Part shown: in pieces, positions 259 through 26,786 of the stretch
Numbering within the stretch: position 1 is the first letter of the stretch
Layout of the letters: each line of letters starts with the position of its first letter
DNA from: a virus
Lineage: Duplodnaviria; Heunggongvirae; Uroviricota; Caudoviricetes
Strand: one strand, 5' to 3'
Virus record (IMG/VR): IMGVR_UViG_2654587996_000006
DNA: 37,884 nucleotides
The notes under the pieces: model-generated
Database searches by the model: none
Seen by the model: the letters and a program-made list of their open reading frames with translations, nothing else
Told to the model about the DNA's origin: nothing
Translations under genes and position numbers: made by a program

Positions 259-267
259 TCGTCTGAC

Positions 268-300
268 AAGCCCTCGCGTTGAGGGCTTTACTGATTTTTT
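268..300. terminator. hairpin aagccctc-gcgtt-gagggctt followed by a T-run; likely terminator between convergent grxA and ybjM
   Basis: 8-bp perfect stem, 5-nt loop, then tactgatttttt; overlaps the ybjM stop codon. Confidence 0.5.
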
Positions 301-665: not shown

Positions 666-934
666 TCGTTCCTCCTGACACTGCGTCTATCGAACACATT
701 TTTCGCCAGTGTGGCGTTCAGTAAGATAAAGCCGCTTCGCATTCCATGCTAATATAGGCCAACGCAATTCATATAGCCGTTGATACCTAATGTGATTACA
801 CTAGTAAAATATATTGTTACTTTACTATCGTTTAGGTGCGCTGAATGAATCTGCGCCCTGAATTCTGGTAAAAAACATTATCGTAAATTACCATTTCTTT
901 CAACAGCTTACTAGTAAACAAGAAGTTAGCCTCC

Positions 935-2620
935 GTGAATATAAACGTCGCCGAATTGTTAAATGGGAATTACATTCTGTTATTATTTGTGGTCCTCGCG
1001 CTTGGGCTATGTCTCGGAAAGTTACGACTTGGTTCGATCCAACTGGGTAATTCCATTGGCGTTTTAGTCGTATCGCTGTTATTAGGCCAACAACATTTCA
1101 GCATTAACACCGATGCGCTTAATCTTGGCTTTATGCTGTTTATTTTCTGCGTCGGGGTCGAAGCCGGACCGAACTTTTTTTCCATTTTTTTTCGCGATGG
1201 GAAAAATTACCTAATGTTAGCACTGGTGATGGTTGGCAGTGCGCTGGTGATCGCCTTAGGGTTAGGTAAGCTGTTTGGCTGGGATATTGGCCTGACGGCC
1301 GGTATGTTAGCAGGCTCTATGACGTCGACACCGGTTCTGGTCGGTGCTGGCGATACACTGCGTCATTCCGGCATGGAAAGCAGGCAGCTCTCACTGGCAC
1401 TGGATAATCTGAGCCTCGGGTATGCCTTAACCTATTTAATCGGTCTGGTGAGTTTGATTGTTGGTGCGCGTTACTTGCCGAAATTGCAGCATCAGGACTT
1501 ACAGACCAGCGCCCAGCAAATCGCCCGCGAACGTGGCCTGGACACTGATGCCAACCGTAAGGTTTATTTACCGGTGATCCGCGCCTATCGCGTCGGCCCG
1601 GAGCTGGTGGCCTGGACCGACGGCAAAAATCTGCGTGAACTGGGTATTTATCGACAAACCGGCTGCTACATTGAACGTATTCGACGTAACGGGATTCTGG
1701 CAAATCCAGACGGTGATGCCGTGCTACAAATGGGCGATGAAATAGCGTTGGTAGGCTATCCCGACGCCCATGCCCGACTCGATCCCAGCTTCCGTAACGG
1801 TAAAGAAGTTTTCGATCGTGACCTTCTCGACATGCGTATCGTCACTGAAGAAGTGGTCGTTAAAAACCATAACGCTGTAGGTAAACGTCTCGCACAACTG
1901 AAGTTGACCGATCACGGTTGCTTCCTTAACCGCGTCATTCGTAGCCAGATTGAGATGCCGATAGATGACAACGTCGTGCTTAACAAAGGTGACGTTTTAC
2001 AAGTCAGCGGTGATGCCCGTCGCGTAAAAACCATCGCCGATCGCATCGGCTTTATCTCGATTCACAGCCAGGTCACTGACCTGCTGGCATTTTGCGCCTT
2101 CTTTGTTATTGGGCTGATGATCGGGATGATCACCTTCCAGTTCAGCACATTCAGTTTCGGCATGGGGAACGCTGCCGGGTTGTTATTCGCCGGAATTATG
2201 CTGGGCTTTATGCGTGCTAACCACCCGACCTTCGGTTACATTCCGCAAGGTGCATTAAGCATGGTGAAAGAGTTCGGCTTGATGGTGTTTATGGCAGGCG
2301 TTGGTCTGAGCGCCGGTAGCGGTATTAATAACGGCCTGGGCGCGATTGGCGGTCAGATGTTGATTGCCGGATTAATTGTCAGTCTTGTGCCCGTGGTTAT
2401 CTGTTTCTTGTTCGGTGCTTATGTATTGCGAATGAACCGCGCACTGTTGTTCGGCGCAATGATGGGCGCACGCACCTGCGCGCCGGCAATGGAGATCATC
2501 AGTGATACAGCTCGCAGTAACATCCCTGCGCTGGGCTATGCGGGCACCTACGCAATCGCCAACGTCCTGCTGACGCTGGCAGGGACAATCATCGTCATGG
2601 TATGGCCAGGATTAGGATAA
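935..2620 (+). CDS. ybjL: putative transporter YbjL (AAE family)
   Basis: 561-aa ORF with hydrophobic N- and C-terminal halves separated by a soluble central region; recognised as E. coli YbjL. Confidence 0.85.
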
Positions 2621-2732
2621 AACTGAAGTTGCCCTGAAAATGAAATTTTTTTGCACAACCGCAGAACTTTTCCGCAGGGCATCAGTCTTAATTAATGCCA
2701 CTGCTTTTCTTTGATGTCCCCATTTTGTGGAG

Positions 2733-2775
2733 CCCATCAACCCCGCCATTTCGGTTCAAGGTTGATGGGTTTTTT
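2733..2775 (+). terminator. rho-independent terminator-like hairpin plus T6 downstream of ybjL, near the prophage right boundary
   Basis: cccatcaacc ... ggttgatggg (10-bp stem) followed by tttttt; may overlap the attR core. Confidence 0.45.
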
Positions 2776-2855
2776 GTTGCCTGAAATTTATACCGTTTAA
2801 AATCATGATGTTAGAAGCACTGTTTTTTAACGATGGCGACAAAATGGCGGCAGCG

Positions 2856-3074
2856 TCAAAGAGAGAGCGCCACCTGTCCTGATTTCATTGGATGCGGCTG
2901 AACCGGATTTGACTCTTTTGGCGTTGCAATCGAACGAACAAAAGTTTCATGGGTAACAAAAGTATGGCTGCAGTTAATGTTCTGGCACTGGTTGTAACGC
3001 TCTTTGGTCAATGAAGATACCTGAAAACTGCTGCGAGTATGGGCGGCACTTCCACACAGTGGGCAAATCATCAT
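2856..3074 (-). CDS. ogr: late transcription activator Ogr (zinc-finger)
   Basis: ORF 2856-3107 trimmed to the internal start MMICPLCG; CPLC...CQNINC zinc-binding motif and the ~72-aa size match P2 Ogr/186 B; sits after gene D as in P2. Confidence 0.8.
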   Translation of the reverse strand: MMICPLCGSAAHTRSSFQVSSLTKERYNQCQNINCSHTFVTHETFVRSIATPKESNPVQPHPMKSGQVALSL

Positions 3075-3164
3075 TTTTCGAGTTCTCCCCATTTTTGCTA
3101 AATTCACAATAATGATACCGCATTATTCCATTTTGCAAACTTAAAAGTTCTCCATTGCGAAGAA

Positions 3165-4265
3165 TCATTCCATTTCGAAATCATCAATTCTCACTTCAAG
3201 CTCCAGACTGGTCGTAAAACCGTTATCCGGGCTGACGGTATGTGTCAGAGTCGTAATGGTCCATTCCGCATCATCTATCGGCTGTTTAAAACCACTGACC
3301 TTCACAGGCATTTCCGTGTAGAGATCTGCCCGCCCTTCCGCCAGTTGTAGCGAGAATGACGCAACTCCGCGTTGCAGGCGTTCCCACTGCATTTTCGCCG
3401 CTCGTTCGGCGTTGCTCCGATTGGCATAGGTGCGATTAAGTACCAGCACGTTTTCATCCGTACCCACCAGGTAATCGCCCTGCTTCGCTTCCGGCTCTTT
3501 CTTCTGCTTCTTAGTCCTGCGCTTACGCTTCACCATGGTGCTTTCTTTCTTCGCGGGTTCGCGGGTATGCAACCAACTGGCAATTACGCCCGTATAGGCT
3601 CCGCGATCTGCCAGGGTAAAGCGGTGACTGTCGCCGTCCTTACGTGTGATAGTGATCACCGGTAGTGGTTTACCGCTGGCACTTTTGCCCTGTCCCTGCC
3701 GGATGAATAACAGATTGCCATTTTTCACCGATGCAATGGCACCGTACTGGCGCGCCAGCCGCATCAAAAAACTGCCGTCACTCTCATTAGTCTGGTCTAT
3801 ATGATCCACGGGTTTCTCCGACAGGTCTTTACCCAGTGCCATCTTCAGTTTGTGACGCGCAGCTATTTCCTTCACCACTTCCCCGACAGTGGTCTTGTGC
3901 CACGATTTTTCACGGCGGGTATTCAGCGTTTCCCGAAAATCAGCACTTCGCGCCCGGATAGTCAGGCGATCCGGTGCGCCAGTGTGTTCAATCTCGTCCA
4001 CCGTGAATGCCCCTTTCGGGACAAGCGGCTGCCCTTTCCAGCCCAGCGCCAGCGTAATGACCGCACCACGGCGCGGCAGCACGATTTTTCCGTCGGCGTC
4101 GTCCAGCTCCAGATCAAGCTGGTCCGCTTCAAAGCCCCGGTTATCCGTCAGCGTAAGCCCCATCAGGCGGTTATCCAGCACAGTGGTGATATCCTTGCCT
4201 TCAATACTGATGCTGAATGCGGGAGTTTTGTTGCCTTTGTTAAGCAGTTCAGAGCTGAAATTCAC
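3165..4265 (-). CDS. D: tail protein D (late control gene D family)
   Basis: 366-aa ORF at the end of the tail operon; P2 gpD-like sequence and position. Confidence 0.85.
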   Translation of the reverse strand: MNFSSELLNKGNKTPAFSISIEGKDITTVLDNRLMGLTLTDNRGFEADQLDLELDDADGKIVLPRRGAVITLALGWKGQPLVPKGAFTVDEIEHTGAPDRLTIRARSADFRETLNTRREKSWHKTTVGEVVKEIAARHKLKMALGKDLSEKPVDHIDQTNESDGSFLMRLARQYGAIASVKNGNLLFIRQGQGKSASGKPLPVITITRKDGDSHRFTLADRGAYTGVIASWLHTREPAKKESTMVKRKRRTKKQKKEPEAKQGDYLVGTDENVLVLNRTYANRSNAERAAKMQWERLQRGVASFSLQLAEGRADLYTEMPVKVSGFKQPIDDAEWTITTLTHTVSPDNGFTTSLELEVRIDDFEME

Positions 4266-4747
4266 GACAGCAGCCCTCCCACCGTTTTACTGATATCGCT
4301 TAATGCAGATGTTGCCGTGTCCTGCAGATTATTCAGCTGCGAACTGAGATCACCGAACATATCGGACAGGGATTCATCCACCCGTTTGAGCGACAGGGTG
4401 AACTCAATCCGGCGCGGCATACCGTCGCGGAAAAACTCCGTTTTAGTCTGATTCAGTCCCTCAATCACATACATGCCGTAAATCGTGCCGCTACCTTCAA
4501 TCAGGGGCCATGCTTTCCCCTGTTCTGCCATCTGCTCCAGAGCCAGCAACGACAGCCTGCCGCCTGTTATCTCCGGCATAAGAACACCGGAAAGCGTCAG
4601 CATGTCGTTGTCCGGTCCCAGAAACTGCGTGGACGGACGACGGTTTACCCGACTGTTTGCCGCATGTCGCCAGCTACGTTGATACTGCAGTTCCTGATAC
4701 GGCACGGTGCGCAGCATAAACACGTACAATCCCAGCACCATCATCAT
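4262..4747 (-). CDS. U: tail protein U
   Basis: 161-aa ORF, 4-nt overlap with D, immediately downstream of the tape measure gene; P2 order T-U-D. Confidence 0.8.
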   Translation of the reverse strand: MMMVLGLYVFMLRTVPYQELQYQRSWRHAANSRVNRRPSTQFLGPDNDMLTLSGVLMPEITGGRLSLLALEQMAEQGKAWPLIEGSGTIYGMYVIEGLNQTKTEFFRDGMPRRIEFTLSLKRVDESLSDMFGDLSSQLNNLQDTATSALSDISKTVGGLLS

Positions 4748-7700
4748 GCGTCGTATCCCCCCTGATCGCTGTAGTTACTCCTGGCCTTTGCCTTCAGCCT
4801 GCGTTCACGTTCATCAAGCTGGCGGGCCACCTCCCGCGCAATATCCTGCGCACTTTGTCCTGGCTGCGTCTGAATGATGATCTGCGTCGGTGCCTCAATC
4901 CGTTGAACGGGCGGCACAATGGCTGCACGACTCACCATCGCTTCGCCGCCTTTCGCGGGAAGTGCCAAAGGATGCAACGGTGGAAGCTCTGCAGGCGCGG
5001 CAGCAACGCCCATCATTCCGGCAACAACGGCAGCCAGTGAAGCTGTATTTCTCCGGCTGGTCACGTTTGCCGGGCCGTTAACAATTTCCGGCCCGTTTTC
5101 ACCGACGATGCCAAACTGCCCGCGCGGGATATAGCCGCCGCTGTCATACATCCCCGCAAAGCCATATCCCCATGACGGAAAACCACCCGATGGCATCATC
5201 ACTTTACCGTCAGCATTCACCGTCGCAGGTTGCTGATGCGTCACGCTTTCCGGCAGTTTCGCCTTTGCAGCCTCTTTACTGACAATGCCGAGTTTATCCA
5301 GCAACCAGGAAACACCGGATTTCAGGGAGTCCAGCGGATGCATAACCATATTCAGACCTTCCGCCAGTGCCTCCCCGAATCGTCGTCCCATTGCCGCTGC
5401 GCTCTGCAGTTCGGCAGAGGTCGACTTAACGGGCGTCAGCAGATCAGTAAACCAGCCCCACAGCGCCTGCACTTTGTCGCCAATCCACTGGAACACGGGC
5501 TTAAGCGGTTCGAACGCTGCACTAACGGGACCTGCCGCCGCTTTGAATCCTTCCACCACGCCACCGAGAAATGCGGTGATGGGTTGCCAGTATTTCCAGA
5601 CAACCAGCGCCACACCCGTCAGTGCAGTAACCACAAGACCTATCGGACTGAGCAGAGCACCTAACAGACCAGATACGGCATACAGAGCAACGCGCAGCAT
5701 CGTCAGCGGACCGGATGCCAGCACTCGTAGCACCGCGCCTGCGGCAGCCAGTCCACCGCGCAGTACCGCCAGAGGATTCATAAACATCACAGCAACAGCA
5801 CGTAAAGCGGATAATCCAGACCGCAATAGTGCAACCGGCGCACCTGCTACAGTTTTCAGGACATTTCCCGTCAGTGATGCCGTACGGCGCAAAGACGACA
5901 ACGGCGCAGTAAGTAAACCCGCTGCGTTACCCGATGAAGCAAGCCCGCGTCGCAGCACTGCCAGTGGAGCGCCAGCCAGCCAGAACAACGCGCTGCTGGT
6001 TCGTGTTACTGCTGCCGTAACGGAAGGTAACGTTTTGATGCCCAGCACAGAGAATCCCAGACGGATGACTGCCAGCGGCCCCAGCACTGCAGCCAGCGCC
6101 ACAGCCAAGGTGCCGAGGCCTACGGTAACCGCAGCCACAATAGCGGCTACTTTCATCAGTGTGCCCGTCAGTTCCGGGTTAGCTTCCACCCAGCGACGCA
6201 ACGCTCCCGTAACGCTTTTCACCATGTACAGAATATCCATCAGCGGCTGGCGCAACGTTTCGCCCAGGCTGCTGAAGGTATTCTGCGCTCCGGTTTTAAC
6301 CAGCAACCACTGAGCAGAAAGTGAGTCCTTGTTGATGTCGGATTCTTTCTGCATGGAACCGAGCGCATCATTGCCCGCTGTCAGTTTTAGCTGGCGCTGT
6401 AGTTCCGGCAGGTTGTTTGCCAGTTTCGCCGCGTCATCGCCAAACTCTTTACCAAACAACATGGTCATGGCAGACAGACGCTTGTCCTGCGGCAGTGCGT
6501 TCACCTTCTCCAGTACACGCTGGATAGTTCCCATCGCATCCTTCGTCATCTGCTTTTCAATCACTTCAGGATTGAGTTTCAGCAGATTCATCCCTTCAAA
6601 GAAACTCTTGCTTTGCATGGTGGCAATGGACAATTCACGCACCATCGCGTTTGCTGCACTGGCTGCAACCTCCGGCGCAGCGCCCAGTGTCAGAAAGGTG
6701 GAACCCAGTGCCGCCGCTTTACGATAATCCAGACGGTCAGCCACACCGCCCAGACGTTGCATCACATCAATGATGTCCGCCCCTTTCGACATGGCGTTAT
6801 CATCCAGATAGTTCAGCGCATCGCCGAGCTGTTCAATATTGCGAGTAGGTATTTTGTAGAGCTGGGCGATTTTCCCCAGACTTTCTGACAGTTCATCCGC
6901 TGGCAGCTCAAAGGCTGTTGCCGCCTTTGCTGCCGTACTGGCGAAGGCCAGCAGGTCACGTTTCTGGTCTTCCCAGCTGTCGTCAGGGTTTGCGACGTTC
7001 ATGCGCGCACCACCTTCAACCAGTGCAGCGAAGTCCACCGCCCCGTTTTCCATCGGCAACTGTTCGCTGGCAGCCTTGATGGCATCCTGCATTTCATAAA
7101 AACGTGCAGTACGGTTTCCATTATCGTCACGCAGACCATTGACCTGCTTTGCCACACCTTTCATGGCATCTTCCATGCTGGTATAGCTTTTTACTGCCGC
7201 CATCACTGGCGTCCCCATTGCCAGCCCTGCAGCCGTGGTAGTGGCTCCGGCTCCTGCAATACGATCGCGCACCTCCAGCGAACGGGCATAACTGGCACGC
7301 GCCGCATTCATCCTGCGCTGAGCTTCACCCAGTCGCTTCAGCCGCGCCTCCTGTTTCGACAATTCCTGGTTATAACGTGATGTTTCACGGGCTAAACGGG
7401 CAGTTGCTCCCGCATCATCTTTCGCAGAAATTCCCGCCCGGTACAGTTCTGCACGCACAAGCGCCGTTTGCTTCTGCAAATATTTTTGCTGTTCTTCCAG
7501 GCGTTGGACTGCCAGCGTTTGCCGACCTAAAGCCACAAGGTGCCGTTGTGATGGTTGTTCCATCGCCTCCAGCTCAGAGCTAAGCAAATTAGCCTTCTGT
7601 CTGGCATAGTTCAGCCTGTCGCCTAACTTCTTGTTATCAGCCTGCAGCTTGCGAAATTTTTCCAGGCTATTACCCGCCTGATTGAGTTGCTTTAATGCGT

Positions 7701-7821
7701 CACGGGAGTTTCTGATTGCGCCAGCCAGCTCTTTCGAACTGGCCTGTGCAACACGGAATGGGCGGGTGAGTTTGTCAACCGCATTAAGAATGACCTGCAG
7801 CCGCAGGTTGTTATCACTCAT
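4744..7821 (-). CDS. T: tail tape measure protein
   Basis: 1025-aa ORF with a coiled-coil N-terminus and Ala/Gly-rich hydrophobic middle; located after E/E' as in P2. Confidence 0.9.
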   Translation of the reverse strand: MSDNNLRLQVILNAVDKLTRPFRVAQASSKELAGAIRNSRDALKQLNQAGNSLEKFRKLQADNKKLGDRLNYARQKANLLSSELEAMEQPSQRHLVALGRQTLAVQRLEEQQKYLQKQTALVRAELYRAGISAKDDAGATARLARETSRYNQELSKQEARLKRLGEAQRRMNAARASYARSLEVRDRIAGAGATTTAAGLAMGTPVMAAVKSYTSMEDAMKGVAKQVNGLRDDNGNRTARFYEMQDAIKAASEQLPMENGAVDFAALVEGGARMNVANPDDSWEDQKRDLLAFASTAAKAATAFELPADELSESLGKIAQLYKIPTRNIEQLGDALNYLDDNAMSKGADIIDVMQRLGGVADRLDYRKAAALGSTFLTLGAAPEVAASAANAMVRELSIATMQSKSFFEGMNLLKLNPEVIEKQMTKDAMGTIQRVLEKVNALPQDKRLSAMTMLFGKEFGDDAAKLANNLPELQRQLKLTAGNDALGSMQKESDINKDSLSAQWLLVKTGAQNTFSSLGETLRQPLMDILYMVKSVTGALRRWVEANPELTGTLMKVAAIVAAVTVGLGTLAVALAAVLGPLAVIRLGFSVLGIKTLPSVTAAVTRTSSALFWLAGAPLAVLRRGLASSGNAAGLLTAPLSSLRRTASLTGNVLKTVAGAPVALLRSGLSALRAVAVMFMNPLAVLRGGLAAAGAVLRVLASGPLTMLRVALYAVSGLLGALLSPIGLVVTALTGVALVVWKYWQPITAFLGGVVEGFKAAAGPVSAAFEPLKPVFQWIGDKVQALWGWFTDLLTPVKSTSAELQSAAAMGRRFGEALAEGLNMVMHPLDSLKSGVSWLLDKLGIVSKEAAKAKLPESVTHQQPATVNADGKVMMPSGGFPSWGYGFAGMYDSGGYIPRGQFGIVGENGPEIVNGPANVTSRRNTASLAAVVAGMMGVAAAPAELPPLHPLALPAKGGEAMVSRAAIVPPVQRIEAPTQIIIQTQPGQSAQDIAREVARQLDERERRLKAKARSNYSDQGGYDA

Positions 7822-8250
7822 CGTTGGCCCCGCTTCTCTGAATCGCTTTATACCGCCATTCCAGCACTTCGGTCAGCGGCATAACGTCAGTAACGGATGG
7901 CGGCCAGTGAAAAATGGTGGCGATGTCTGCCACCAGATCGTCAACCGTCAGGCTGTCGGTAAACCGGCAAGCACCGACTTCTTCAACAAAAAAGTGACAA
8001 CCTCAACCGACATAGCGGTGAGATCTGCCGGGTCCATCTCTGCGATTTCCTGTGCAGTCAGTACCGGACTGGAAATGCGGGGGATCACGGTCATCATCGC
8101 GTTCACATCCATATCCATAATGGCCTGCAGGCGCGTGCCGCGCAGCGCACCGGACTGCGGCTTACGCAGCACAATTTCGGTGATTTCCGTTTTACCGCGC
8201 TTGATAGGGGTATCCAGTTGAATGGTCTTTTCAGTCTGCTTATCGCTCAT
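7814..8250 (-). CDS. E+E': tail assembly chaperone E+E' produced by programmed -1 frameshift
   Basis: Slippery heptamer T TTT TTG (plus 7987-7993) sits 12 codons before the E stop; the -1 frame is open from there for about 57 codons to a TGA at 7814-7816 that overlaps the T start (ATGAGTGA). Predicted product about 143 aa, matching the P2 E+E' arrangement. Confidence 0.7.
7948..8250 (-). CDS. E: tail assembly chaperone E
   Basis: 100-aa ORF between FII and T; ends ...TFLLKKSVLAGLPTA with the T6G slippery site inside TFLL. Confidence 0.8.
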   Translation of the reverse strand: MSDKQTEKTIQLDTPIKRGKTEITEIVLRKPQSGALRGTRLQAIMDMDVNAMMTVIPRISSPVLTAQEIAEMDPADLTAMSVEVVTFLLKKSVLAGLPTA

Positions 8251-8304
8251 TTTGTTGTCCTGTAAATTGGGTTCTGGCGCGGTATCCCGCGCCGTTCAGA
8301 TACA

Positions 8305-8820
8305 TCAGAGGCCGAGGGCGTTGCGGTGCGCTTCCATCAGGTCCACACCGTCCACAATTTCCACCATGTTGATAAGGTCCACTTCATAGAGCACCTCACC
8401 ATTGATGGTCAGCTTCGCGTAGCTGTTGGTACTGGTCACTTTGGTGGTGTTGCTTTCGCCCGTCTTCCACTCGCCGGAATCCACTTCTTTGTGACGTCCA
8501 CGCACCACAAGCTCCACGGCCTGCACTTCCCCGGTATCGTCACGCTGGATAGAGCCGGTAAAGCGCAACTGGATGCCATCCACCGTGGATTTGCCCATCT
8601 GCTTAAACAGCAGCAGTTCGGTACCACCAATGGAAAATTCTGTATCCAGTGCACTGTCATCCAGTCCCAGATCCACATCCACCGCCCCCGGCATACCGCC
8701 GCCGCGATACTTCTCATATTTGCGGGTGAATTTCGGCAGCGTCAGCGACTCAACGATTCCCTGCCAGTTGTTCCCGTCGTTAAACAGGTTCAGATGTTTT
8801 AATTTGCGTGGTAAAGCCAT
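8305..8820 (-). CDS. FII: tail tube protein FII
   Basis: 171-aa ORF directly downstream of the sheath gene; P2 FII-like. Confidence 0.85.
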   Translation of the reverse strand: MALPRKLKHLNLFNDGNNWQGIVESLTLPKFTRKYEKYRGGGMPGAVDVDLGLDDSALDTEFSIGGTELLLFKQMGKSTVDGIQLRFTGSIQRDDTGEVQAVELVVRGRHKEVDSGEWKTGESNTTKVTSTNSYAKLTINGEVLYEVDLINMVEIVDGVDLMEAHRNALGL

Positions 8821-8829
8821 GTTGTCCCC

Positions 8830-10002
8830 TTACGCGCTGACCTGGCTGGCGAAATTCACCAGGTACTGATCGGTGATGCGCTGGCGCAGCATCAGATTTT
8901 CAAGTGGCGGCACTGGCGTGTAGTCGTAGTCGATGGTGAGTTTTCCGGCTTTAAGCGTGTCTTTGTCGTTCACCGACTCGTCCAGCCAGCAATCACCACC
9001 AATGAGATAGCCCTGACTGACCAGGCTGCGCATTTTGGCGCGGATACCTTCGATAATGTCGCGGGCCAGCGACGGGTTCAGCGGTTTGTCCACCGCCCAC
9101 ATGTGTGCTTCTGCCATCGTGTCCGTCAGCACCTGCGCCGTGCGGGTGTAGTTTTCGAAAGCAAAAAGCGGATCATCGCTCAGACAGCGGGAACCCCAGA
9201 AGCGGAAACCATCCTTGCGCACAAGCGTGGTGACGTCGTTCTGGTTCAGCAGACCTGCATCGGTTGCCGGGTCCTGCAGATCCCAGAACACATCAGCAGA
9301 AATTCCGGTGACACCGTTCACGCCCACGTTGGACAGGCTTTTGTGCCATCCGGTCTGCTCATCAATTTTGGCGCGCAGACCGAGCGCACGGGCGGTGGCA
9401 TAAGCCGTTGCTTCGGCATTCAGCACCGTGTCCCAGCCAGTAAAGTCGGGCCAGATCAGCATTCCTTCACGCTGACTGAAGTTTTCACGGTAAGTGATTG
9501 CTTCCTGCACCGTCTTGCAACCATACGCTGACAGGTAAGCAAACCCACGCAGGCTTTGCGCCACGCTCAGCAACTCAGTAGCTACCGCCTTCGTGTCGTG
9601 ACCTGGCACGCCGAGAATGCGCGGTTTAACGCCGAGCTGTGACTGGGCAGATAACAGGGCTTTCATGCCTGTTTTTTTACCTTCAGCAGTCACTGCGCCG
9701 ATGATATTGGTCGTGGTTTCTTCTTCCGTTTCACCCTGCGGCACACGCACAACAACGGTCACGGGTTTTGCCTGGTCAGCGATGGCGTCCAGCGAACGGG
9801 CCAGCGTACCGGACTCACCCGCTTTACCGCTGGCAGTCAGCACATCAGTGATCAGCACGGGTTTATTAAGAGGAAACATTTTTGCATCGGCATCATCGCC
9901 CGTGCAGACCATACCCACGATGGCGGTGCTCACCGTGGTAATGGATCGGGTGCCTTCGTTGACTTCAACAACGCGCACCCCGTGGTGGTAATCCTGAGCC
10001 AT
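8830..10002 (-). CDS. FI: contractile tail sheath protein FI
   Basis: 390-aa ORF, first gene of the F operon; P2 FI-like. Confidence 0.9.
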
Positions 10003-10078
10003 AGTGGCGAACCTCCTGATTGGATTAGGCTTCGCCCTATGTTGAAGTGATTGTGCCTGACAAACAGCTAAGCGCAGT

Positions 10079-10096
10079 TGTACCGTTATTCACACA
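10079..10096 (-). promoter_or_regulatory. Ogr-type late-promoter activator dyad (TGT-N12-ACA) upstream of FI
   Basis: TTGTACCgttattCACACAAAA, about 85 bp upstream of the FI start; nearly identical to the dyad upstream of P/O. Confidence 0.6.
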
Positions 10097-10143
10097 AAAT
10101 GACGGTATTTGTCTGCTGCAGGGATAATCAAAATAATGCTGAT

Positions 10144-10710
10144 TCAGGGAGATTCATTGCTCTTATTTGCCGGAAATTTTCTATAAATGGTAGAAACGCC
10201 TACATCAAAAATCAGTGCAATACGCTGTCTTGATTCTCCGGCCTCGAGTAAACGCCCAATCTGTGCCCACTGTTCGGTGGTCAACTTAGGACGGCGTCCA
10301 CCTACTCTGCCTTTGGCACGAGCTGCAGCCAGCCCTGCCCTGGTACGTTCAACTATCAGTTCGCGTTCCATTTCAGCCAGGGCACCCATGACATGAAAAA
10401 AGAAACGGCCCATTGGGGTGCTGGTATCAATACTGTCAGTCAGGCTTCGGAAATTCACGCCTCGCTGACGCAACTCTTCTATCAGCGTAACAAGATGCCG
10501 CATACTGCGCCCCAACCTGTCCAGCTTCCAGACAACCAGCGTGTCTCCTGCCGATAGTGTCCTGAGCAGTTTTTTCAACCCTGGTCTGTCGGACTTAGTG
10601 CCACTGATTTTATCCTCAAAAATCCGCTCACATCCCGCGCAGTTCAGTGCATTACGTTGCAAATCGGTGTTCTGGTCATTTGTTGACACGCGTACATAGC
10701 CAATAAGCAT
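10144..10710 (-). CDS. pin: serine DNA invertase (Pin/Gin/Cin/Hin family)
   Basis: MLIGYVRVSTNDQNTDLQRNAL... with the catalytic Ser in YVRVST and a C-terminal HTH; nearly identical over its length to enteric invertases (closest by memory to e14 Pin). The ORF as given starts 2 codons earlier at 10716. Confidence 0.9.
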   Translation of the reverse strand: MLIGYVRVSTNDQNTDLQRNALNCAGCERIFEDKISGTKSDRPGLKKLLRTLSAGDTLVVWKLDRLGRSMRHLVTLIEELRQRGVNFRSLTDSIDTSTPMGRFFFHVMGALAEMERELIVERTRAGLAAARAKGRVGGRRPKLTTEQWAQIGRLLEAGESRQRIALIFDVGVSTIYRKFPANKSNESP

Positions 10711-10777
10711 GATCATCCCCCTGAATAAAAACCGGGGATGATGCCAGTTAGCCGTAATCGCTGCATTTTCTTAAACG

Positions 10778-10792
10778 TTGGTTTGGGAGAAG
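10778..10792. repeat. left inversion crossover site (inverted repeat TTGGTTTGGGAGAAG)
   Basis: 15-bp perfect inverted copy of 12625-12639; both copies encode GLGE in frame. Confidence 0.7.
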
Positions 10793-11127
10793 CGGCAAAA
10801 CGAAATGTGGGAACAGGGGAAAATCAGATACCAGATATGTCTGCATTCCCATCTGGCAAAAACTGGTTTCAGTTACCAAGTGGTCATATTGTCCAAATGT
10901 TTTCGATGAATGTTTATGGGGCGGACACTAACGGAACTACTGGTAATTTCCCTATTGCATTTCCTTCAGGTGCACTTGCTGTTAGTGCCTTATGGTCTGA
11001 TGGCACATTAACGGCTGCTCCGACCTTTAAACTTATGGGGTACACGACAACAAGGACATCAGTAACCTTAAAAGTATCAACCGGAAATGGTTTGTATGGA
11101 ACTATGATTATTGCAATAGGAAGATAA
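10793..11127 (+). CDS. alternative tail-fibre C-terminal segment (silent in this orientation, no start of its own)
   Basis: The open frame continues in frame from the crossover site (...VGLGE|AAKRNVG...); after inversion it would fuse to the constant N-terminal part of H. Confidence 0.55.
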
Positions 11128-11128
11128 T

Positions 11129-11572
11129 ATGAATCAATATATTTATTCCCCTTCGGAAAATGCATTTTATGCTGTTAATTTAAAAAATACTTATGAAGTA
11201 AATGGAACATGGCCCGCTGATGCATTAGATATTCCTGATAACATTTCTGTAAAATATATGGCGAAACCGCCACAAGGGAAAATCCGAGTTGCAGGGGTAA
11301 ATGGTTTTCCCACATGGGCTGAAATACCTCAACCATCACATGAAGAACTTATTCAACAGGCAGAATCAGAAAGACAATTATTGCTTAATCAGGCCAACGA
11401 ACACATGAACAGTAAGCAATGGCCAGGTAAAGCCGCTATTGGTCGTCTGAAAGGTGAGGAACTGGCGCAATATAATTTGTGGTTGGATTATCTGGACGCA
11501 CTGGAACTGGTCGATACTTCCAGTGCTCCAGATATTGAATGGCCTACGCCTCCGGCAGTTCAGGCCAGATGA
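11129..11572 (+). CDS. alternative tail-fibre assembly chaperone (Tfa/U')
   Basis: 147 aa; C-terminal ...LWLDYLDALELVDTSSAPDIEWPTPP matches the conserved C-terminus of G (...LDYIDAVTVTDTSTAPDVIWPELP). Confidence 0.75.
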   Translation: MNQYIYSPSENAFYAVNLKNTYEVNGTWPADALDIPDNISVKYMAKPPQGKIRVAGVNGFPTWAEIPQPSHEELIQQAESERQLLLNQANEHMNSKQWPGKAAIGRLKGEELAQYNLWLDYLDALELVDTSSAPDIEWPTPPAVQAR

Positions 11573-12146
11573 CATCCGGCGCGGTGCTGGTATCTGTTAC
11601 CGTCACCGCGTCAATGTAATCCAGCACGGCGTTAAGTCGGGTTGTTTCTGCCTGCGTCAACTTCCGTCCGGCCTGCAATTTCAGTTGAATCAGACTAATG
11701 GAAGCCATTGCAGTATCAATCAGTGACTGACGTTGTGCTTCTGCCGCGTCTACTGCGGCGCTATGCTGTGCCTCGGTATCCGTCACCCATTTCTCACCAT
11801 CCCATTTATCGTATGGCGTTAACGGGGCGATAGTGGTTGTTTTTTCGGGGTAATCACCCGGAGTTGTGATTTCTTTGGCGTCTCCCGTTTCGGTGTTATA
11901 GACGATTTCACCGCGATGGTCTGGCACATATTCCCATGAGTTTAAATCCATCGAACGGCAGATAGCATAACCCGCCTTATGTGTGCCAGGGGCATCTAAA
12001 CAGGAATATGCAGGGATACCGACGCCAACAGCAAGATATTCATTTGAAGTGGAAATATATTCTCGAGTTTCACCATCATAGTTATAGACGGTAATATTCC
12101 CTGCTTTGGTGGCGATAATCTCGCTATTTAATATGGCGTTATCCAT
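11544..12146 (-). CDS. G: tail-fibre assembly protein G
   Basis: 200 aa, start overlaps the H stop (TAATG); conserved Tfa C-terminal motif. Confidence 0.85.
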   Translation of the reverse strand: MDNAILNSEIIATKAGNITVYNYDGETREYISTSNEYLAVGVGIPAYSCLDAPGTHKAGYAICRSMDLNSWEYVPDHRGEIVYNTETGDAKEITTPGDYPEKTTTIAPLTPYDKWDGEKWVTDTEAQHSAAVDAAEAQRQSLIDTAMASISLIQLKLQAGRKLTQAETTRLNAVLDYIDAVTVTDTSTAPDVIWPELPEA

Positions 12147-13687
12147 TATGCAGCCCTCACAATATAGTTAAATGCAATATTCCTTGGTCGAACCCTAAAA
12201 CCAGCCCCTGCGCCTGCTCCAGTTGGTGGCAATTCGATAGAGGGGTATGCTGTTGCAGGGGAATATAAACCTTCACGGGAATCATAATCAGTCGTCATAT
12301 AGTTAGACGTATTATCAGAAACAGTTTCTGTCGGTCTGGTAACCAGACGATAAGAGCCAGTGGTTGGTGACCTGACCAGACCAAAACTTTCAACCAGAGT
12401 GGCTTTTTGAAAGCTTAATAATCCCCGACCACTGTCAGCTCCACGCCCGTCATCCCAGCCACGAATAAACTCACCACGTAAATCAGGCAATTTATTTGTC
12501 GGATAAGCCTTTGCCAGTTCCGGGTATTCTTCAGCAGAAAAAGCTGCACCGTTGCATTTCAGCCAGCCTGTCGGCGGAGTGGCTGAAGGCCATGGAACAG
12601 GTACACCAACAGGTAATGCCGAACCTTCTCCCAAACCAAGGTATGCGAGAAGACCAGCTACATCCTTTCCACTCAAATTAGTCAGCGTATTGTCCAGCGG
12701 TTGTTTACCTGCCAGCGCATTAAGCATTGTCGTGGCAAAGTTCGGATCATTCCCCAGCGCCGCCGCCAGTTCGTTCAGTGTATCTAGGGCCGCAGGTGCA
12801 GAACCCACCATTCCTGCAATCGCCGATTTCACAAAAGCCGTAGTGGCAATCTGTGTATTGTTGACCGACTGCGCCGCCGTGGGGGCTGTTGGCGTTCCGG
12901 TGAGTGCCGGACTCGACAGCGGCGCTTTCAGTGCCAGCGCATTGTTAATGGTGGTACTGAATTTCGGATCATTGTTAATGGCTACGGCTATTTCTTTCAG
13001 CGTGTCCAGCGTGGCTGGCGCACCATTAATAAGAGCCGTCAGTGCCGCCTGAACAAATGCGGTGGTCGCAAGCTGCGTGGTATTATTCCCCGCCGCTGGC
13101 GTTGGCGCTTTGGGGGTTCCGGTAAACGTCGGACTTTCTTTGGGTGCATACTGTGAATGCGGGTCCGGTGCGGCAAGATGTTTTGCCATCAGGTCATCCA
13201 CGTACACCTTCAGCTCCAGTGCCTTGTCATCCACATACTTGCGGGTTGCCAGCACTACAGCAGGGTCGATTTTCAGGGTGATATTGTCCGTACTGCTGGT
13301 AATCAGCACCATGCGCACGGTCTGGGTGCGCCCGCTGCCTTCAGCCAGTTGCGGCTTATAGCTTTCCGGGCAGTTGCCCACGGCAATCAATGCCCCGGAC
13401 TCATCAAACAGGCCCACTTCACGTATCCACCAACCGCCCTCGTTTTCAGGGATCACCTGTTCAGCAATAATCTGGCTGCTGTTCTGCGGGTCGATATAAA
13501 GCATATTCAGCGCAGCCCGGCGTTTCTCATTTACCAGTGCCGTCTGCTTTGCGTCCGGCGTTGGCAATACTCCGCCGCCATCGCCCACCGCCATATGGGT
13601 AATTTTTAGCGGCACACCGAGCGCGGCGGCGCTGGCAAGTTTCGCCGCGCCAATATCCGTCAGCAGGGTATAAAATTTTGTGCTCAT
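12146..13687 (-). CDS. H: tail fibre protein H (constant N-terminus plus currently expressed variable C-terminus)
   Basis: 513 aa; Ala/Thr-rich repeats (TTAFVxxA, NDPxF) typical of tail fibres; the inversion crossover site lies inside the gene at 12625-12639. Confidence 0.9.
   Translation of the reverse strand: MSTKFYTLLTDIGAAKLASAAALGVPLKITHMAVGDGGGVLPTPDAKQTALVNEKRRAALNMLYIDPQNSSQIIAEQVIPENEGGWWIREVGLFDESGALIAVGNCPESYKPQLAEGSGRTQTVRMVLITSSTDNITLKIDPAVVLATRKYVDDKALELKVYVDDLMAKHLAAPDPHSQYAPKESPTFTGTPKAPTPAAGNNTTQLATTAFVQAALTALINGAPATLDTLKEIAVAINNDPKFSTTINNALALKAPLSSPALTGTPTAPTAAQSVNNTQIATTAFVKSAIAGMVGSAPAALDTLNELAAALGNDPNFATTMLNALAGKQPLDNTLTNLSGKDVAGLLAYLGLGEGSALPVGVPVPWPSATPPTGWLKCNGAAFSAEEYPELAKAYPTNKLPDLRGEFIRGWDDGRGADSGRGLLSFQKATLVESFGLVRSPTTGSYRLVTRPTETVSDNTSNYMTTDYDSREGLYSPATAYPSIELPPTGAGAGAGFRVRPRNIAFNYIVRAA
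12625..12639. repeat. right inversion crossover site inside H
   Basis: CTTCTCCCAAACCAA is the reverse complement of 10778-10792. Confidence 0.7.
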
Positions 13688-14289
13688 GGATTCACTCTCA
13701 TTGTGTCAATAACATGGACCGCCCCGCCTTCATGCGCGGTGCCACCGGAAATAATCGTTTCGTTGATATACGGATAGATCGTGATTTCTTCGCCAAGATA
13801 GCTGGCGGCTCCCACCCAATGCGGGCCGCTGGTCTGCAGATTGATGGACATGCCGATCATGTGGCGGCTACATGGTTTGGCATCGCTTATCAGTCGCTCA
13901 AGTTCCAGATAGGTATCTTCAGTGATGCCCTGGTCCTGCACGCCGATATCCAGGCGAAACGTGCCCGGTGCCTCTCCGGTCTGCCACCACTCAATAATGC
14001 GGATCAGAAAGCCGAACGGCTCCACCACCCGCCGCACGGCACTGGTGGTCCCTTTATGCTGATGAATATAAAAAGCATCCTTCACCACCTGGCGTTTGAC
14101 GCTTTCTGTCCAGCCCTCGTCCCAGCGATCCACAGAGAACGCCCAGGCGAGATAAGGCAGGAAACTGACCGGACAGGTTGCCGGATTCCACAAGTCACGC
14201 AGCGGCACCTGCAGATCAGAAATCCCGCTGCAGGTTTGCGCCAGTCGGCGCTCCAGTGGTGTTGAACCCGGTGGCAGCAGACTATTCAT
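13684..14289 (-). CDS. I: baseplate assembly protein I
   Basis: 201 aa; P2 gpI-like, between J and H. Confidence 0.8.
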   Translation of the reverse strand: MNSLLPPGSTPLERRLAQTCSGISDLQVPLRDLWNPATCPVSFLPYLAWAFSVDRWDEGWTESVKRQVVKDAFYIHQHKGTTSAVRRVVEPFGFLIRIIEWWQTGEAPGTFRLDIGVQDQGITEDTYLELERLISDAKPCSRHMIGMSINLQTSGPHWVGAASYLGEEITIYPYINETIISGGTAHEGGAVHVIDTMRVNP

Positions 14290-15190
14290 CCGTTCCTCCG
14301 TTGGTTACGCTCCACTGCGTACATGATGCCGCCTGTGTTTTGTTCAGGACCACATCCGCCAGAGGAGAAGCCAGCTCCACACGCTGCACACCCTCAACAT
14401 GCAGGGCGGCAAAGATGGCGCTACGGCGAATATCCCGACCAAGACGCGTCTGACTGGCGATGTACTTCTGCAGGCTGGCTTTTGCCGCTGCCATTACCGG
14501 CTCTGCTTCCGGTCCAGGATAGAGAAAAATGGTGGCTTCCACGCGATACGGGATGATTTCTGCGCTGCGAACCGTAAGACGGTCAGCCACCGGGCGGACG
14601 TTCTCACTGTTCAGAGCTTTTTCCACCACGTCCAGCAGGTCTTTTTCTGCAGTTCCATCGCCTTCGCGGCTAAGGACAGTCAGCACCACCTCTGCAGGTG
14701 CCGGGCTGGTTGCACTGGCATCCGCCACCCGACCGTCGGCGCTTCGGGCATGAAATTCATAAGCTGCAGTTGGCCCCGCAACTGAAAGCCCTTCAAAGGC
14801 TGCAGGCACACGCAGGCGTAACGCTTCATCGCTTTCCATCACAGCTGCAACGGGCGGCACAGCGTCATTATCAGCAGGCGTCACCGTCAGGCGTTTCACG
14901 TTGTAGTTGGCAGCGAGCTGGTCAAGATCGCTGCCCATCGCGTAAGCCACCATCACAGCCTGCGCGGCTTCGTTAATGCGCTGGCGCAGAAGCAACTCAC
15001 GGTAAGCGTTCTCCTGCAGCAATTTGGTGACGGGTTCAGATTCCAGTTCCAGAGTGCGGATCACTGCTTCCTGCTCATCTTTCGGATGAAGCGCAACAAA
15101 TTCGGCCTTGCGTTCGGCAAGCAGCGTCTCAAAGTCCGGCACATCGACAATCTGCGGCGCAGGCAACTGCGAAAGGTCAATCACTGCCAT
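14282..15190 (-). CDS. J: baseplate assembly protein J
   Basis: ORF 14282-15229; likely start at MAVIDLSQLP (15190), giving about 302 aa as in P2 J. Confidence 0.8.
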   Translation of the reverse strand: MAVIDLSQLPAPQIVDVPDFETLLAERKAEFVALHPKDEQEAVIRTLELESEPVTKLLQENAYRELLLRQRINEAAQAVMVAYAMGSDLDQLAANYNVKRLTVTPADNDAVPPVAAVMESDEALRLRVPAAFEGLSVAGPTAAYEFHARSADGRVADASATSPAPAEVVLTVLSREGDGTAEKDLLDVVEKALNSENVRPVADRLTVRSAEIIPYRVEATIFLYPGPEAEPVMAAAKASLQKYIASQTRLGRDIRRSAIFAALHVEGVQRVELASPLADVVLNKTQAASCTQWSVTNGGTDE

Positions 15191-15536
15191 TCTCTGCTCC
15201 TGTTGATACGGAAAGGGAAACAGGCACACCGTTATTACGCCGCCCGGTCAGCCCCACCACCATTGAACCGTCAAAATTGCTTTTAATGGTGATGGAATCC
15301 AGCGTCAGCCGTGGCTCCCAGCGACTCAGCGCCACATAAACTGCCGACATGACCTGCAGGCGTAATGCCGGATTTTGTGGCTGGTCTATCAGTGTCGACA
15401 GCAGGGAACCATATTCACGACGGGCAATGCGGCTACCCTGCGGTGTCAGTAGAATGTCCCGCACCGACTGACGCAGATGGTCAATATCAGTAATGGCTTT
15501 ACCGCTGGTATTGTTCATCCCGATATAAAGCGTCAT
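15177..15536 (-). CDS. W: baseplate protein W
   Basis: 119 aa; P2 gpW-like, between V and J. Confidence 0.8.
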   Translation of the reverse strand: MTLYIGMNNTSGKAITDIDHLRQSVRDILLTPQGSRIARREYGSLLSTLIDQPQNPALRLQVMSAVYVALSRWEPRLTLDSITIKSNFDGSMVVGLTGRRNNGVPVSLSVSTGAENGSD

Positions 15537-16111
15537 ACCGGGCCTCCGGTTGTATCGCCGCCTTTCAGGACGCCAGTATGCTGATGCGCATCAACCACGA
15601 TCCCGTTAGAACTCATCGCTCCGCCGCCCTGGGTAACGCCACCATTGATCACCACTTCGCTGTTAATGCGCGTGCGGTCAGCCTCCAGTACAAACTCACT
15701 GGTTTTCATGGTGATGTTGTCAGCGGCCTCAATGACCATTGATTTGATGCCCCTGACATACCAGCGCCCGGTGGCGGGTTCGTATTCAAACCAGCCACCG
15801 TCAGGATGTTCTGTCACGCAGGCGTCCGCCGACGTCGACGGTGGTGCGAACTGATTCGAATAGACAGCGGGCAGCGCAAAGGCGGTCTCCAGATTGCCGC
15901 CCAGACTCAGCAGCACCACCTGCTCACCTTCCGATGGTTTCCACCATGTGCGGGCATTACCCGCGCGCAGCGTCAGCCAGTTAATCCAGTTGGTTTCAAG
16001 GTCGCCCGTTTTCACCCGACAAAGCCAGTTTTCCCGGTCCACTTCGGTGACTACCCCAGTGCGGATCAGGTTGGTGATAAGGCGCATGATTTCGGTTAAT
16101 TGTGCGTTCAT
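15533..16111 (-). CDS. V: baseplate spike protein V
   Basis: 192 aa; first gene of the V-W-J-I-H-G operon. Confidence 0.8.
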   Translation of the reverse strand: MNAQLTEIMRLITNLIRTGVVTEVDRENWLCRVKTGDLETNWINWLTLRAGNARTWWKPSEGEQVVLLSLGGNLETAFALPAVYSNQFAPPSTSADACVTEHPDGGWFEYEPATGRWYVRGIKSMVIEAADNITMKTSEFVLEADRTRINSEVVINGGVTQGGGAMSSNGIVVDAHQHTGVLKGGDTTGGPV

Positions 16112-16157
16112 AGGGAAAGGTTGCCATCAGGGGAAGAAAGGCGGCAGTGCTGCAACT

Positions 16158-16175
16158 TGTATCAGTGCTGATACA
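16158..16175 (-). promoter_or_regulatory. Ogr-type late-promoter dyad upstream of V
   Basis: TTGTATCagtgctGATACAAAG centred about 55 bp upstream of the V start codon. Confidence 0.55.
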
Positions 16176-16179
16176 AAGA

Positions 16180-16626
16180 TCACCCCGCCAGCCATTGCAG
16201 AATCATGTCGCGGGTCATTGCCTCAACATCATCATTTACACCCAGCAGGCGGCGCTCTGCGTAACGGACCTCCGGTCCTTTGCGACTGACGCGATCACGC
16301 AGGCCGTAATGGTGAACACGGGCAATACGCTGCACCTTGCCTTCAAACTGTACGCTGGCAGAGTCGGCGCTGGCGGCAGTTTTCAGGTATTTTGTGGTGC
16401 GCAGCTTTGCAAACATCTGACGTTTGATGCGCCCCTTCTTGCTGCGTGCTGTTACCCTGCGCGGTTCATAACTGCTGCCATCAGGATTGCGCTGCATCCT
16501 GATATTCTGCTGCTGTGTCCGGCGCAGTTCCTGCGCCAGCTGGCGCATCATGCGGCTTCTGGCGGCTGGTTCCAGATTCGCCAGCAAGGCACTCAACCAG
16601 TCGTCCACCTTCTGCAATTCAGCCAC
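16180..16626 (-). CDS. S: tail completion protein S
   Basis: 148 aa; P2 gpS-like. Confidence 0.8.
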   Translation of the reverse strand: MAELQKVDDWLSALLANLEPAARSRMMRQLAQELRRTQQQNIRMQRNPDGSSYEPRRVTARSKKGRIKRQMFAKLRTTKYLKTAASADSASVQFEGKVQRIARVHHYGLRDRVSRKGPEVRYAERRLLGVNDDVEAMTRDMILQWLAG

Positions 16627-17071
16627 GTTTCACCGTCCACATTTCTTCAGGTTCATCAGGTTCCGCTACCGCTTCAACGTTCGACACACTGCCGTCAGTG
16701 CTGACCAGCACACGCTCTGTCAGTTGCAGGTTAAGGCTGATATCACAGACATCGTTGCGCAGAATATCCACCTCAAAGGTGAATAACTTTTCCCGTAACG
16801 CCGGGTTATTGATGGCATCGGGCTGGTTATCCCGCAACCACAGCAAAACCGGGGCCATCAGCAGATTCTGGTCGCCGCTGAAATCCTCAATCACTGCGTT
16901 CAGGGTGTAACGGTACTCCCATGACATGGAGCTGGCCCCCGTGGCAACCAGCGAACCGTTATCCACAAACAGATGCAGTTTGTCCGGGTTATTGCGGACA
17001 TAAGGCACCGCTTTATTGAGGGCGTGGCGCAGGGATTGTGGTTTGTTCACTGTTTCGCTCCTGACACGCAA
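16619..17071 (-). CDS. R: tail completion protein R
   Basis: 150 aa; P2 gpR-like; overlaps the lysC 3' end. Confidence 0.8.
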   Translation of the reverse strand: MRVRSETVNKPQSLRHALNKAVPYVRNNPDKLHLFVDNGSLVATGASSMSWEYRYTLNAVIEDFSGDQNLLMAPVLLWLRDNQPDAINNPALREKLFTFEVDILRNDVCDISLNLQLTERVLVSTDGSVSNVEAVAEPDEPEEMWTVKRG

Positions 17072-17303
17072 TAATCATGTCCACTTTGTCTGCACAGACC
17101 GCCCAGGCGGCCTCCGTTTCATCCAGCAATGCGTTCAGATCACCGTTAGTGCGCGGCGCTGTCTGATCCAGCCGACACGGCGTCACTCGCGGACAACCAC
17201 TGACGGTAAGCTGCACCTCCGGTGAGTGCCGGACGTTCCCGCAGCCGGATAATGTCAGCAGGCAAAGGAGTATCAGCCCAGCGGCGTAAATCCTCGTTCT
17301 CAC
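17013..17303 (-). CDS. lysC: outer-membrane spanin lipoprotein (LysC/Rz1-like)
   Basis: 96 aa; signal peptide with lipobox LTLSG-C; begins embedded out of frame in lysB, the classic Rz/Rz1 architecture. Confidence 0.7.
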   Translation of the reverse strand: MRTRIYAAGLILLCLLTLSGCGNVRHSPEVQLTVSGCPRVTPCRLDQTAPRTNGDLNALLDETEAAWAVCADKVDMIIACQERNSEQTTIPAPRPQ

Positions 17304-17574
17304 GTTTCAGTTCCTCGATCCGGCGTTGTCGTTGTCTCAGCTGTGCGCTGGTCTGTTCTGCTTCGGCATAGAGCCGCGCCTGCTCCCGGTTATTGGTTTC
17401 AGTCAGAATGGACAGGCTGATAAGCTGGCTGTTGCTCTTTGCCAGTGCCTGGCTTTTGCTCCGAAGCTCGTCTGCCTGCGTGCTGATGGTCTGGCTGGCA
17501 TCAGCCAGCCGCCACGTCTGCCAGCCCAGCGCCGCCAGTAATAACGCCAGCACAACCAGCAGCAACCGGTTCAT
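17146..17574 (-). CDS. lysB: inner-membrane spanin (LysB/Rz-like)
   Basis: 142 aa; N-terminal TM helix followed by a coiled coil rich in charged residues. Confidence 0.75.
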   Translation of the reverse strand: MNRLLLVVLALLLAALGWQTWRLADASQTISTQADELRSKSQALAKSNSQLISLSILTETNNREQARLYAEAEQTSAQLRQRQRRIEELKRENEDLRRWADTPLPADIIRLRERPALTGGAAYRQWLSASDAVSAGSDSAAH

Positions 17575-24924: not shown

Positions 24925-24930
24925 TTAATT

Positions 24931-24962
24931 CAGTAGTAGCAACTTTAAAGGCGCTACTACTG
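24931..24962. terminator. hairpin between convergent Q and the KAP NTPase gene
   Basis: cagtagtagc / gctactactg 10-bp stem in an AT-rich context. Confidence 0.4.
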
Positions 24963-24970
24963 AACAAACA

Positions 24971-26747: not shown

Positions 26748-26786
26748 TGCCCGCTTTGTGTAGTGGTTTTCATGCACCTGCATGAC

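Follow-up and report, generated by a model that had tools for sequence, protein, structure and literature searches.

The invertase gene and its crossover sites

We analysed a DNA invertase gene and the adjoining tail-fibre genes of a P2-like prophage, which together form a candidate inversion switch. The window, meaning here the whole stretch of 37,884 nucleotides (nt) of record IMGVR_UViG_2654587996_000006, is a chromosomal stretch of Escherichia coli with grxA, ybjM and ybjL at its left end and the prophage inside; the late genes of the prophage are on the minus strand. Between the invertase gene and the chaperone gene G, the plus strand holds two further genes, an open reading frame (ORF) for a fibre C-terminus and a chaperone gene of 147 amino acids (aa).

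The minus-strand gene at 10144-10710 encodes a Din-family serine DNA invertase of 188 aa (RefSeq WP_000905033.1, with the same coordinates); it starts about 55 bp from the left crossover site and is transcribed away from the invertible segment. A Pfam search found the Resolvase (E=2.3e-53) and HTH_7 (E=1.5e-15) domains, so that the protein has the N-terminal catalytic domain with Ser9/10 and the C-terminal helix-turn-helix by which small serine recombinases are recognised. It is 85% identical to PinE of e14, 77% to Cin of P1 and 74% to Gin of Mu, and an alignment showed that it keeps the catalytic Ser9, located in an intact N-terminal motif (MLIGYVRVSTNDQ), as well as every residue that is invariant among PinE, Gin and Cin. 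The closest solved structure in the PDB was that of Gin (3uj3, E=8e-93, residues 1-184). An earlier reading of this DNA made from its letters only, called here the sequence-only reading, had described the gene as a near-canonical enteric serine invertase, and these results agree with that description.

A scan flagged a hairpin and T-run at 10749-10730 (minus strand) as a terminator between the left crossover site and the invertase gene, but its folding energy was no better than that of shuffled sequences (z=0.02) and it was rejected. The scan showed no convincing terminator between the H-G operon and the invertase gene, so that late read-through into the latter is possible.

The repeat finder placed inverted repeat arms of 27 nt, 81% complementary, at 10766-10792 and 12625-12651, with a perfect core of 15 nt at exactly 10778-10792 and 12625-12639. 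When perfect inverted repeats of at least 15 nt with arms at least 100 nt apart were counted in shuffles of the 3.4-kb region, one was obtained in 1 of 300 shuffles. Chance is no serious explanation for the repeats, because their core is the known repeat of the e14 P segment: the e14 repeats for which inversion was measured are TTGGTTTGGGAGAAGG and its complement (PMC12529663), and the core found here is identical to the TTGGTTTGGGAGAAGG core of e14.

The coordinates that the sequence-only reading had given for the 15-bp repeats were exact, while the functional sites are 26 bp long and not 15. The left, invertase-proximal site at 10766-10791 (TTTTCTTAAACG TT GGTTTGGGAGAA, central dinucleotide at 10778-10779) is one base off the pin-proximal site of e14, TTCTCCCAAACCAACGTTTATGAAAA. 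The right site, located inside H at 12626-12651 (TTCTCCCAAACC AA GGTATGCGAGAA, central dinucleotide at 12638-12639), is three bases off the e14 site inside stfP when read in the same sense, and it is comparable with cixR of P1, TTCTCTTAAACCAAGGTATTGGATAA. The cixL/cixR sites of P1 and the gixL/gixR sites of Mu have a common ...AAACC-NN-GGTTT... core. The two sites of the window are in inverted orientation and their central dinucleotides match (TT/AA); they are thus two inverted 26-bp imperfect palindromes with identical 2-bp cores, as expected of Din sites, with 1-3 mismatches to those of e14. Their inner half-sites are identical and their outer half-sites have diverged, which is why the perfect repeat is only 15 nt long.

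By analogy, the staggered cuts are expected at the central dinucleotides, 10778-10779 and 12638-12639. Cuts at these positions would assign the GLGE codons, which lie in the inner half-sites, to the invertible segment, and this segment would be the 1858 bp between the two dinucleotides (10780-12637). A search of the 37.9-kb window with half-site or core patterns, allowing up to 3 mismatches, found no third crossover site. A multiple-inversion system (shufflon-like, like Min of p15B, or like the three-repeat prophage of enteropathogenic E. coli, EPEC) has more than two sites and hence more than two fibre variants, and it was rejected on the basis of the two sites found here.

Two fibre and chaperone cassettes

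The tail-fibre gene H (12146-13687, minus strand) encodes 513 aa, with a Phage_tail_fib N-terminal domain and a Collar domain. Its constant N-terminal part, residues 1-350 (12638-13687, minus strand; Phage_tail_fib E=7e-65), is the same in both orientations of the segment. The current variable C-terminus, residues 351-513 (12146-12637, minus strand), has its Pfam Collar match at residues 361-408 and matches the tip of T4 gp37 (2xgf, E=2.8e-14). H reads ...AYLGLGEGS... at the boundary, with the right site at codons 350-354 and GLGE at residues 351-354, and the DNA at 12441-12642 is 95% identical to stfE of e14. The current chaperone gene, G/tfa (11544-12146, minus strand), encodes 200 aa of the P2 G/TfaE type (Caudo_TAP E=1.7e-31) that are 90% identical to TfaE of e14.

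The silent alternative fibre C-terminus (10780-11127, plus strand) consists of GLGE and 111 aa with a gp53-like_C domain (PF21882, E=6.2e-9), and it lacks an N-terminal part of its own. The plus-strand ORF reads ...NVGLGEAAKRNVG... in frame; RefSeq calls it as an ORF of 129 aa that begins at 10738. The alignment of this tip with the C-terminus of StfP of e14 (31% identity) starts from the shared GLGE. It is followed by the silent alternative assembly chaperone gene (11129-11572, plus strand; 147 aa, Caudo_TAP E=1.4e-33), the C-terminal half of whose product is 67% identical to TfaP of e14. The two chaperone genes converge with a 29-nt overlap of their 3' ends at 11544-11572, and tfaP and tfaE of e14 overlap likewise. 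The coding sequences of the C-terminal peptides of the two chaperones, ...TSSAPDIEWPTPPAVQAR and ...TSTAPDVIWPELPEA, lie in and beside this overlap, one on each strand. The GC content of the silent cassette is 42% versus 56% for the constant part of H, and this AT-richness fits a mosaic origin.

The flip was then carried out in silico on 10793-12624. It joined codon 350 of H (...LAYL) to GLGEAAKRNVGTGENQ...IAIGR and gave H', an uninterrupted product of 465 aa, with the 147-aa chaperone gene directly after it, while the Collar-type tip and the TfaE-like chaperone became the silent pair beside the invertase gene. The locus thus has the architecture of a host-range switch: a crossover site in the fibre gene, a constant N-terminus and two in-frame C-termini, each with its own chaperone, that give an H of 513 aa or an H' of 465 aa. 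Most of what the sequence-only reading had said of these cassettes was borne out, namely that the right repeat encodes GLGE within H, that an alternative chaperone is encoded at 11129-11572 and that inversion would exchange the C-terminus of H and G for the alternative pair, a product that is open in silico and occurs in E. coli OkiPb01698. Its left GLGE is indeed in frame at the head of the silent C-terminus, but these codons occupy 10780-10791 and the next codon starts at 10792 instead of 10793.

Both orientations in public genomes

Comparison of the window with public genomes showed that the 2.8 kb at 10000-12800 are 100% identical to E. coli OkiPb01682, and that the same region flipped in silico matches OkiPb01698 in one uninterrupted piece at 100% identity. 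Both strains come from a common source, bovine faeces from Okinawa. Their flanks are 100.000% identical over 20,176 nt and 10,792 nt, the segment is inverted between them, and this inversion is the only difference between the two over about 31 kb. The RefSeq fibre protein has 513 aa in one of the Okinawa strains and 465 aa (WP_097156331.1) in the flipped isolate. As the flanks are identical, the outer half-sites stay put and the crossover lies within the 15-nt core, a position that agrees with a cut at the central dinucleotide, which is located at the outer edge of this core. Inversion of the segment is thus seen indirectly, through the presence of both orientations, with the predicted junctions, in sister isolates. 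The sequence-only reading had named the detection of a single orientation as an argument against itself, and the flipped module of a sister isolate contradicts that outcome.

Among complete E. coli genomes, 11 had the orientation of the window and seven had the flipped one when the 2.8-kb query was required to be covered by at least 80% in each. Junction queries of 261 nt placed the gp53-like cassette beside the invertase gene in 21 genomes and the Collar/StfE-type cassette beside an invertase gene in 912. These last two counts were not used as an orientation ratio: the 912 are inflated by other invertase-linked modules with an StfE-like cassette, and the full-length comparison (11 versus seven) is therefore the cleaner figure.

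A putative Fis-dependent enhancer

The enhancers of Hin and Cin have two Fis sites of a degenerate consensus that are spaced 48 bp apart. Two Fis-like 15-mers exactly 48 bp apart were found in the window, at 10674-10688 and 10626-10640, in the 5' part of the invertase gene, where the sequence-only reading had suggested searching for such an enhancer. The centre of the proximal motif is about 98 bp from that of the left crossover site. The motif KNNYRNNWNNYRNNM occurs at gene nt 23-37 and 71-85 in the invertase gene of the window, pinE, gin and cin, and the four genes align without gaps across the enhancer interval. The putative recombinational enhancer corresponds to nt 19-90 of the invertase gene (10621-10692, minus strand), the interval that the P1 record annotates in cin as the enhancer of C inversion. 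The arrangement expected of an enhancer is thus present at the sequence level, from which Fis binding and a Fis dependence of inversion may be predicted.

Identity at third codon positions was compared between nt 19-90 and the rest of the gene. It was higher in the interval against pinE (17/24 versus 73/150), slightly higher against cin (12/24 versus 60/150) and slightly lower against gin (9/24 versus 62/150).

Gene order of the prophage and its other cargo

The late genes of the window are ordered J (14282-15229, minus strand), I (13684-14289, minus strand), H, G/tfa, the invertase gene, a 141-nt spacer, FI (8830-10002) and FII. In RefSeq, the closely related prophage of OkiPb01682 is annotated with V, W, J, I, H, G ... 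FI, FII, E, T, U, D and ogr, as well as with a capsid of the P2 family, cox/C-type regulators and an integrase. This arrangement of the fibre and tail genes, and the presence of cargo at the Z/fun hotspot between G and FI, are those of P2-like phages (Peduoviridae). Judged from the annotation of this relative, the prophage of the window is apparently complete, with a full-length H and tail and head genes.

The OkiPb01682 prophage is identical to the window across the switch region and 96-99% identical across most of the remainder. Between the window and the Okinawa isolates, identity was 99.3% over 1-17532, fell to about 95-96% in the head and replication genes and was 100% over 10000-12800; the window comes from neither of these isolates, and the module is thus unchanged in a mosaic P2-like background.

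Direct reading of the sequence between the invertase stop codon and FI revealed, at 10079-10096, the motif TGT-N12-ACA, the consensus of Ogr-type activator sites at P2 late promoters. This motif is read as an Ogr/Delta-type late activator site of the F-operon promoter, which seems to have been kept downstream of the inserted invertase gene, and it marks where the Z/fun hotspot insertion ends on the far side. In the P2 record (NC_001895), a binding site for the activator is annotated at the corresponding position upstream of FI.

The hotspot cargo of the window differs from that of the Okinawa strains. A KAP-like P-loop nucleoside triphosphatase of 443 aa is encoded at 35421-36752 (plus strand) between a C-type repressor gene (34553-35209) and the integrase gene (36754-37884); it is the cargo of the third P2-like hotspot, beside the repressor, and matches the PADLOC candidate defence family PDC-S20 (E=2e-171), its matches to PifA and QatA being weak. 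At 24971-27649 (minus strand), beside the portal gene in the old/tin hotspot, are encoded a P-loop protein of 554 aa (PADLOC PDC-S49, E=1e-29) and a Cys-rich ORF of 239 aa. The region 24879-28028 has no counterpart in the related OkiPb01682 prophage, which has other cargo there.

Proposed mechanism and alternative explanations

Taken together, these results make it highly probable that the module is an active Pin-like switch of the Din family, by which a P2-like E. coli prophage changes its tail fibre through site-specific inversion. The steps of the proposed mechanism are drawn mostly from homology with Hin and Gin. Invertase dimers would bind the two 26-bp sites and, with Fis bound to the enhancer in the 5' coding region of the invertase gene, would assemble into an invertasome on supercoiled DNA; inversion is probably Fis-assisted. 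Ser9 would cut both sites at the central dinucleotides, 10778-10779 and 12638-12639, and rotation and religation would invert the intervening 1858 bp. The late V-W-J-I-H-G transcript would encode residues 1-350 of H followed by the 163-aa Collar-type tip, with the TfaE-like chaperone, in the orientation of the window, and the same residues followed by the 115-aa gp53-like tip, with the TfaP-like chaperone, in the flipped one. Slow switching in the lysogen would give a burst in which virions of two receptor specificities are mixed.

Several points weigh against this explanation or limit it. A consensus scan of the minus strand upstream of 10710 found no convincing sigma-70 promoter for the invertase gene, so that its expression is assumed. 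The conservation of the enhancer interval is not cleanly separable from coding constraint, and the third-codon signal is suggestive only in the comparison with pinE. The argument that the window prophage switches is drawn entirely from genome comparison. That the two orientations differ in receptor specificity is a prediction, made likely by the assignment of their tips to separate Pfam families, Collar and gp53-like_C. Finally, Din invertases cross-complement, and the Okinawa flip could therefore have been catalysed by another resident one.

This last point leads to an explanation in which the segment inverts but is acted on in trans by another Din invertase, such as PinE, PinQ or PinR of cryptic prophages, the adjacent one being poorly expressed or inactive. 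Gin-type genes are weakly expressed, and a weak promoter is therefore expected here, so that the lack of a clear one in the consensus scan, which would favour action in trans, is what an active gene of this type would give as well. Such action is documented and thus plausible on biochemical grounds, PinQ of Qin having been found to invert the P segment of e14, with its identical repeat core (PMC12529663). However, the adjacent invertase is full length, keeps all the residues invariant in PinE, Gin and Cin and has enhancer-like motifs in its gene, and in P2-like phages an invertase gene is almost always linked to such segments. Because this gene is intact, action in trans is unnecessary, and we consider it very unlikely as the explanation of the module. 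A fossil switch, whose orientations would come from rare RecA-mediated recombination between the short repeats or from assembly choices, is extremely unlikely. It draws on the same dependence of the evidence for the window element on genome comparison, and on the fact that assemblies collapse mixed populations to one orientation. Yet 15-27 nt is far under the length of efficient RecA substrates, and still it is precisely this inversion that distinguishes two isolates with 31 kb of identical sequence. Both orientations recur in relatives (the 11 and seven genomes mentioned above), an assembly confused by a mixed population would in itself be a sign of switching, and all the components are intact.

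The inversion might also serve mainly the host, by yielding a fibre or chimera that masks outer-membrane receptors against superinfecting phages, as reported for StfE2 of e14. Inversion of the e14 P segment was reported to block the adsorption of T2 (PMC12529663), and the module of the window has the crossover core of e14, a TfaE that is 90% identical and, near the junction, DNA that is 95% identical to stfE. However, the fibre genes of e14 are truncated remnants (stfE is a pseudogene), whereas the P2-like prophage that harbours the segment of the window appears to be complete, with tail and head genes and an H of full length, and its fibre genes are in an Ogr-dependent late operon from which expression in a lysogen is not expected. 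We give this selected role a very slight chance of being the main one. A coupling of the two systems is conceivable, because Din invertases act in trans and the prophage has the same crossover core as the P segment of e14: the prophage invertase would act on e14-type segments of the host, and PinE, PinQ or PinR on the prophage segment, so that the host-range switch would be linked to the receptor masking reported for StfE2. Such cross-talk is improbable in our judgement; if it took place, the prophage would modulate the phage resistance of its host.

Comparison with known systems

The inversion switch of the window is a device that is already known, from the G segment of Mu, the C segment of P1, the P segment of e14, fin of Fels-2 and the P2-like prophages of EPEC. 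The kinship with the Mu, P1 and e14 segments that the sequence-only reading had put forward was confirmed by the crossover sites, the enzyme family and the cassette layout. In essence, the module is a P segment of the e14 type that has been grafted onto a fibre gene of the P2 type. It shares with e14 P/PinE an invertase that is 85% identical, near-identical crossover sites, the common 15-nt core and a 90% identical TfaE, as well as the order fibre constant part, variable part and tfa, convergent tfa', silent variable part, crossover site and outward invertase gene; the segments have similar sizes, 1858 bp here and 1797 bp in e14. However, the fibre genes of e14, a defective lambdoid remnant, are truncated, whereas the H gene here is intact and of the P2 type, and the second cassette is distant, with a gp53-like tip that is 31% identical to the C-terminus of StfP and a tfa' whose N-terminal half is unrelated.

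The Mu G/Gin and P1 C/Cin systems have in common with the module of the window the enzyme family, the 26-bp gix/cix consensus, an enhancer (putative here) in the 5' part of the invertase gene and alternative fibre-chaperone pairs (S/U and S'/U') on a constant fibre N-terminus. Their segments are larger, at about 3 kb in Mu and 4.2 kb in P1, and have long variable parts. In P1 it is the 3' end of cin that lies towards the segment, whereas it is the 5' end of the invertase gene here, in Mu and in e14; the central dinucleotide is TC/GA in Mu and TT/AA here and in P1.

Systems of the same family occur in other P2-like prophages and phages, namely Fels-2 (fin), the two prophages of EPEC E2348/69, Peduovirus magyaro, 500465-1 and Klebsiella phage KP12, in which the fibre/chaperone genes and the tail sheath gene likewise flank the segment. 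Sequencing showed phase-variable inversion in the two EPEC prophages, one with two variants and the other with three repeats and four variants (PMC4272514); the prophage of the window differs from the latter in having two sites only. Strains LT2 and LT7 differ by an inverted fibre segment beside fin of Fels-2, a P2-like prophage of Salmonella for which inversion was thus inferred (PMC7953296), and the presence of an invertase in the Z/fun hotspot of P2, beside genes that are inverted, has been pointed out (bioRxiv 10.1101/2024.10.15.618418). The cassette combination varies among the relatives, with a coverage of 68-72% in phage records. P2 itself has the same order, V-W-J-I-H-G ... FI-FII-E-T-U-D, and the activator site upstream of FI, but it has no invertase gene and a single H/G pair, and its G-FI interval is occupied by the fun(Z) moron, located immediately upstream of the FI promoter (NC_001895), as the sequence-only reading had stated.

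The same gene set is annotated in numerous deposited records of P2-like phages from E. coli and Klebsiella. The main value of the finding is one of annotation, since the RefSeq labels are generic ('recombinase family protein', 'gp53-like domain-containing protein') and the silent cassette is given as a free-standing gene of 129 aa; it makes no open question newly testable. The switch accounts for the differing fibre proteins (513 and 465 aa) of near-identical isolates and for disagreeing assemblies of such lysogens, and for phage biology and engineering it adds a further natural fibre module of the P2 type, probably with dual specificity.

The invertase encoded by KP12 is 99.5% identical to that of the window. 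Among P2-like phages of Klebsiella pneumoniae (Kp48xx and KP12), the invertases are 99-99.5% identical and the flanking DNA about 93% identical, which points to an invertase/fibre module shared across genera. In Peduovirus magyaro (NC_041848.1, 2371-2865), the invertase coding sequence is annotated at 495 nt (164 aa) versus 188 aa here; this may be a truncated or mis-started gene, and its switch may hence be locked.

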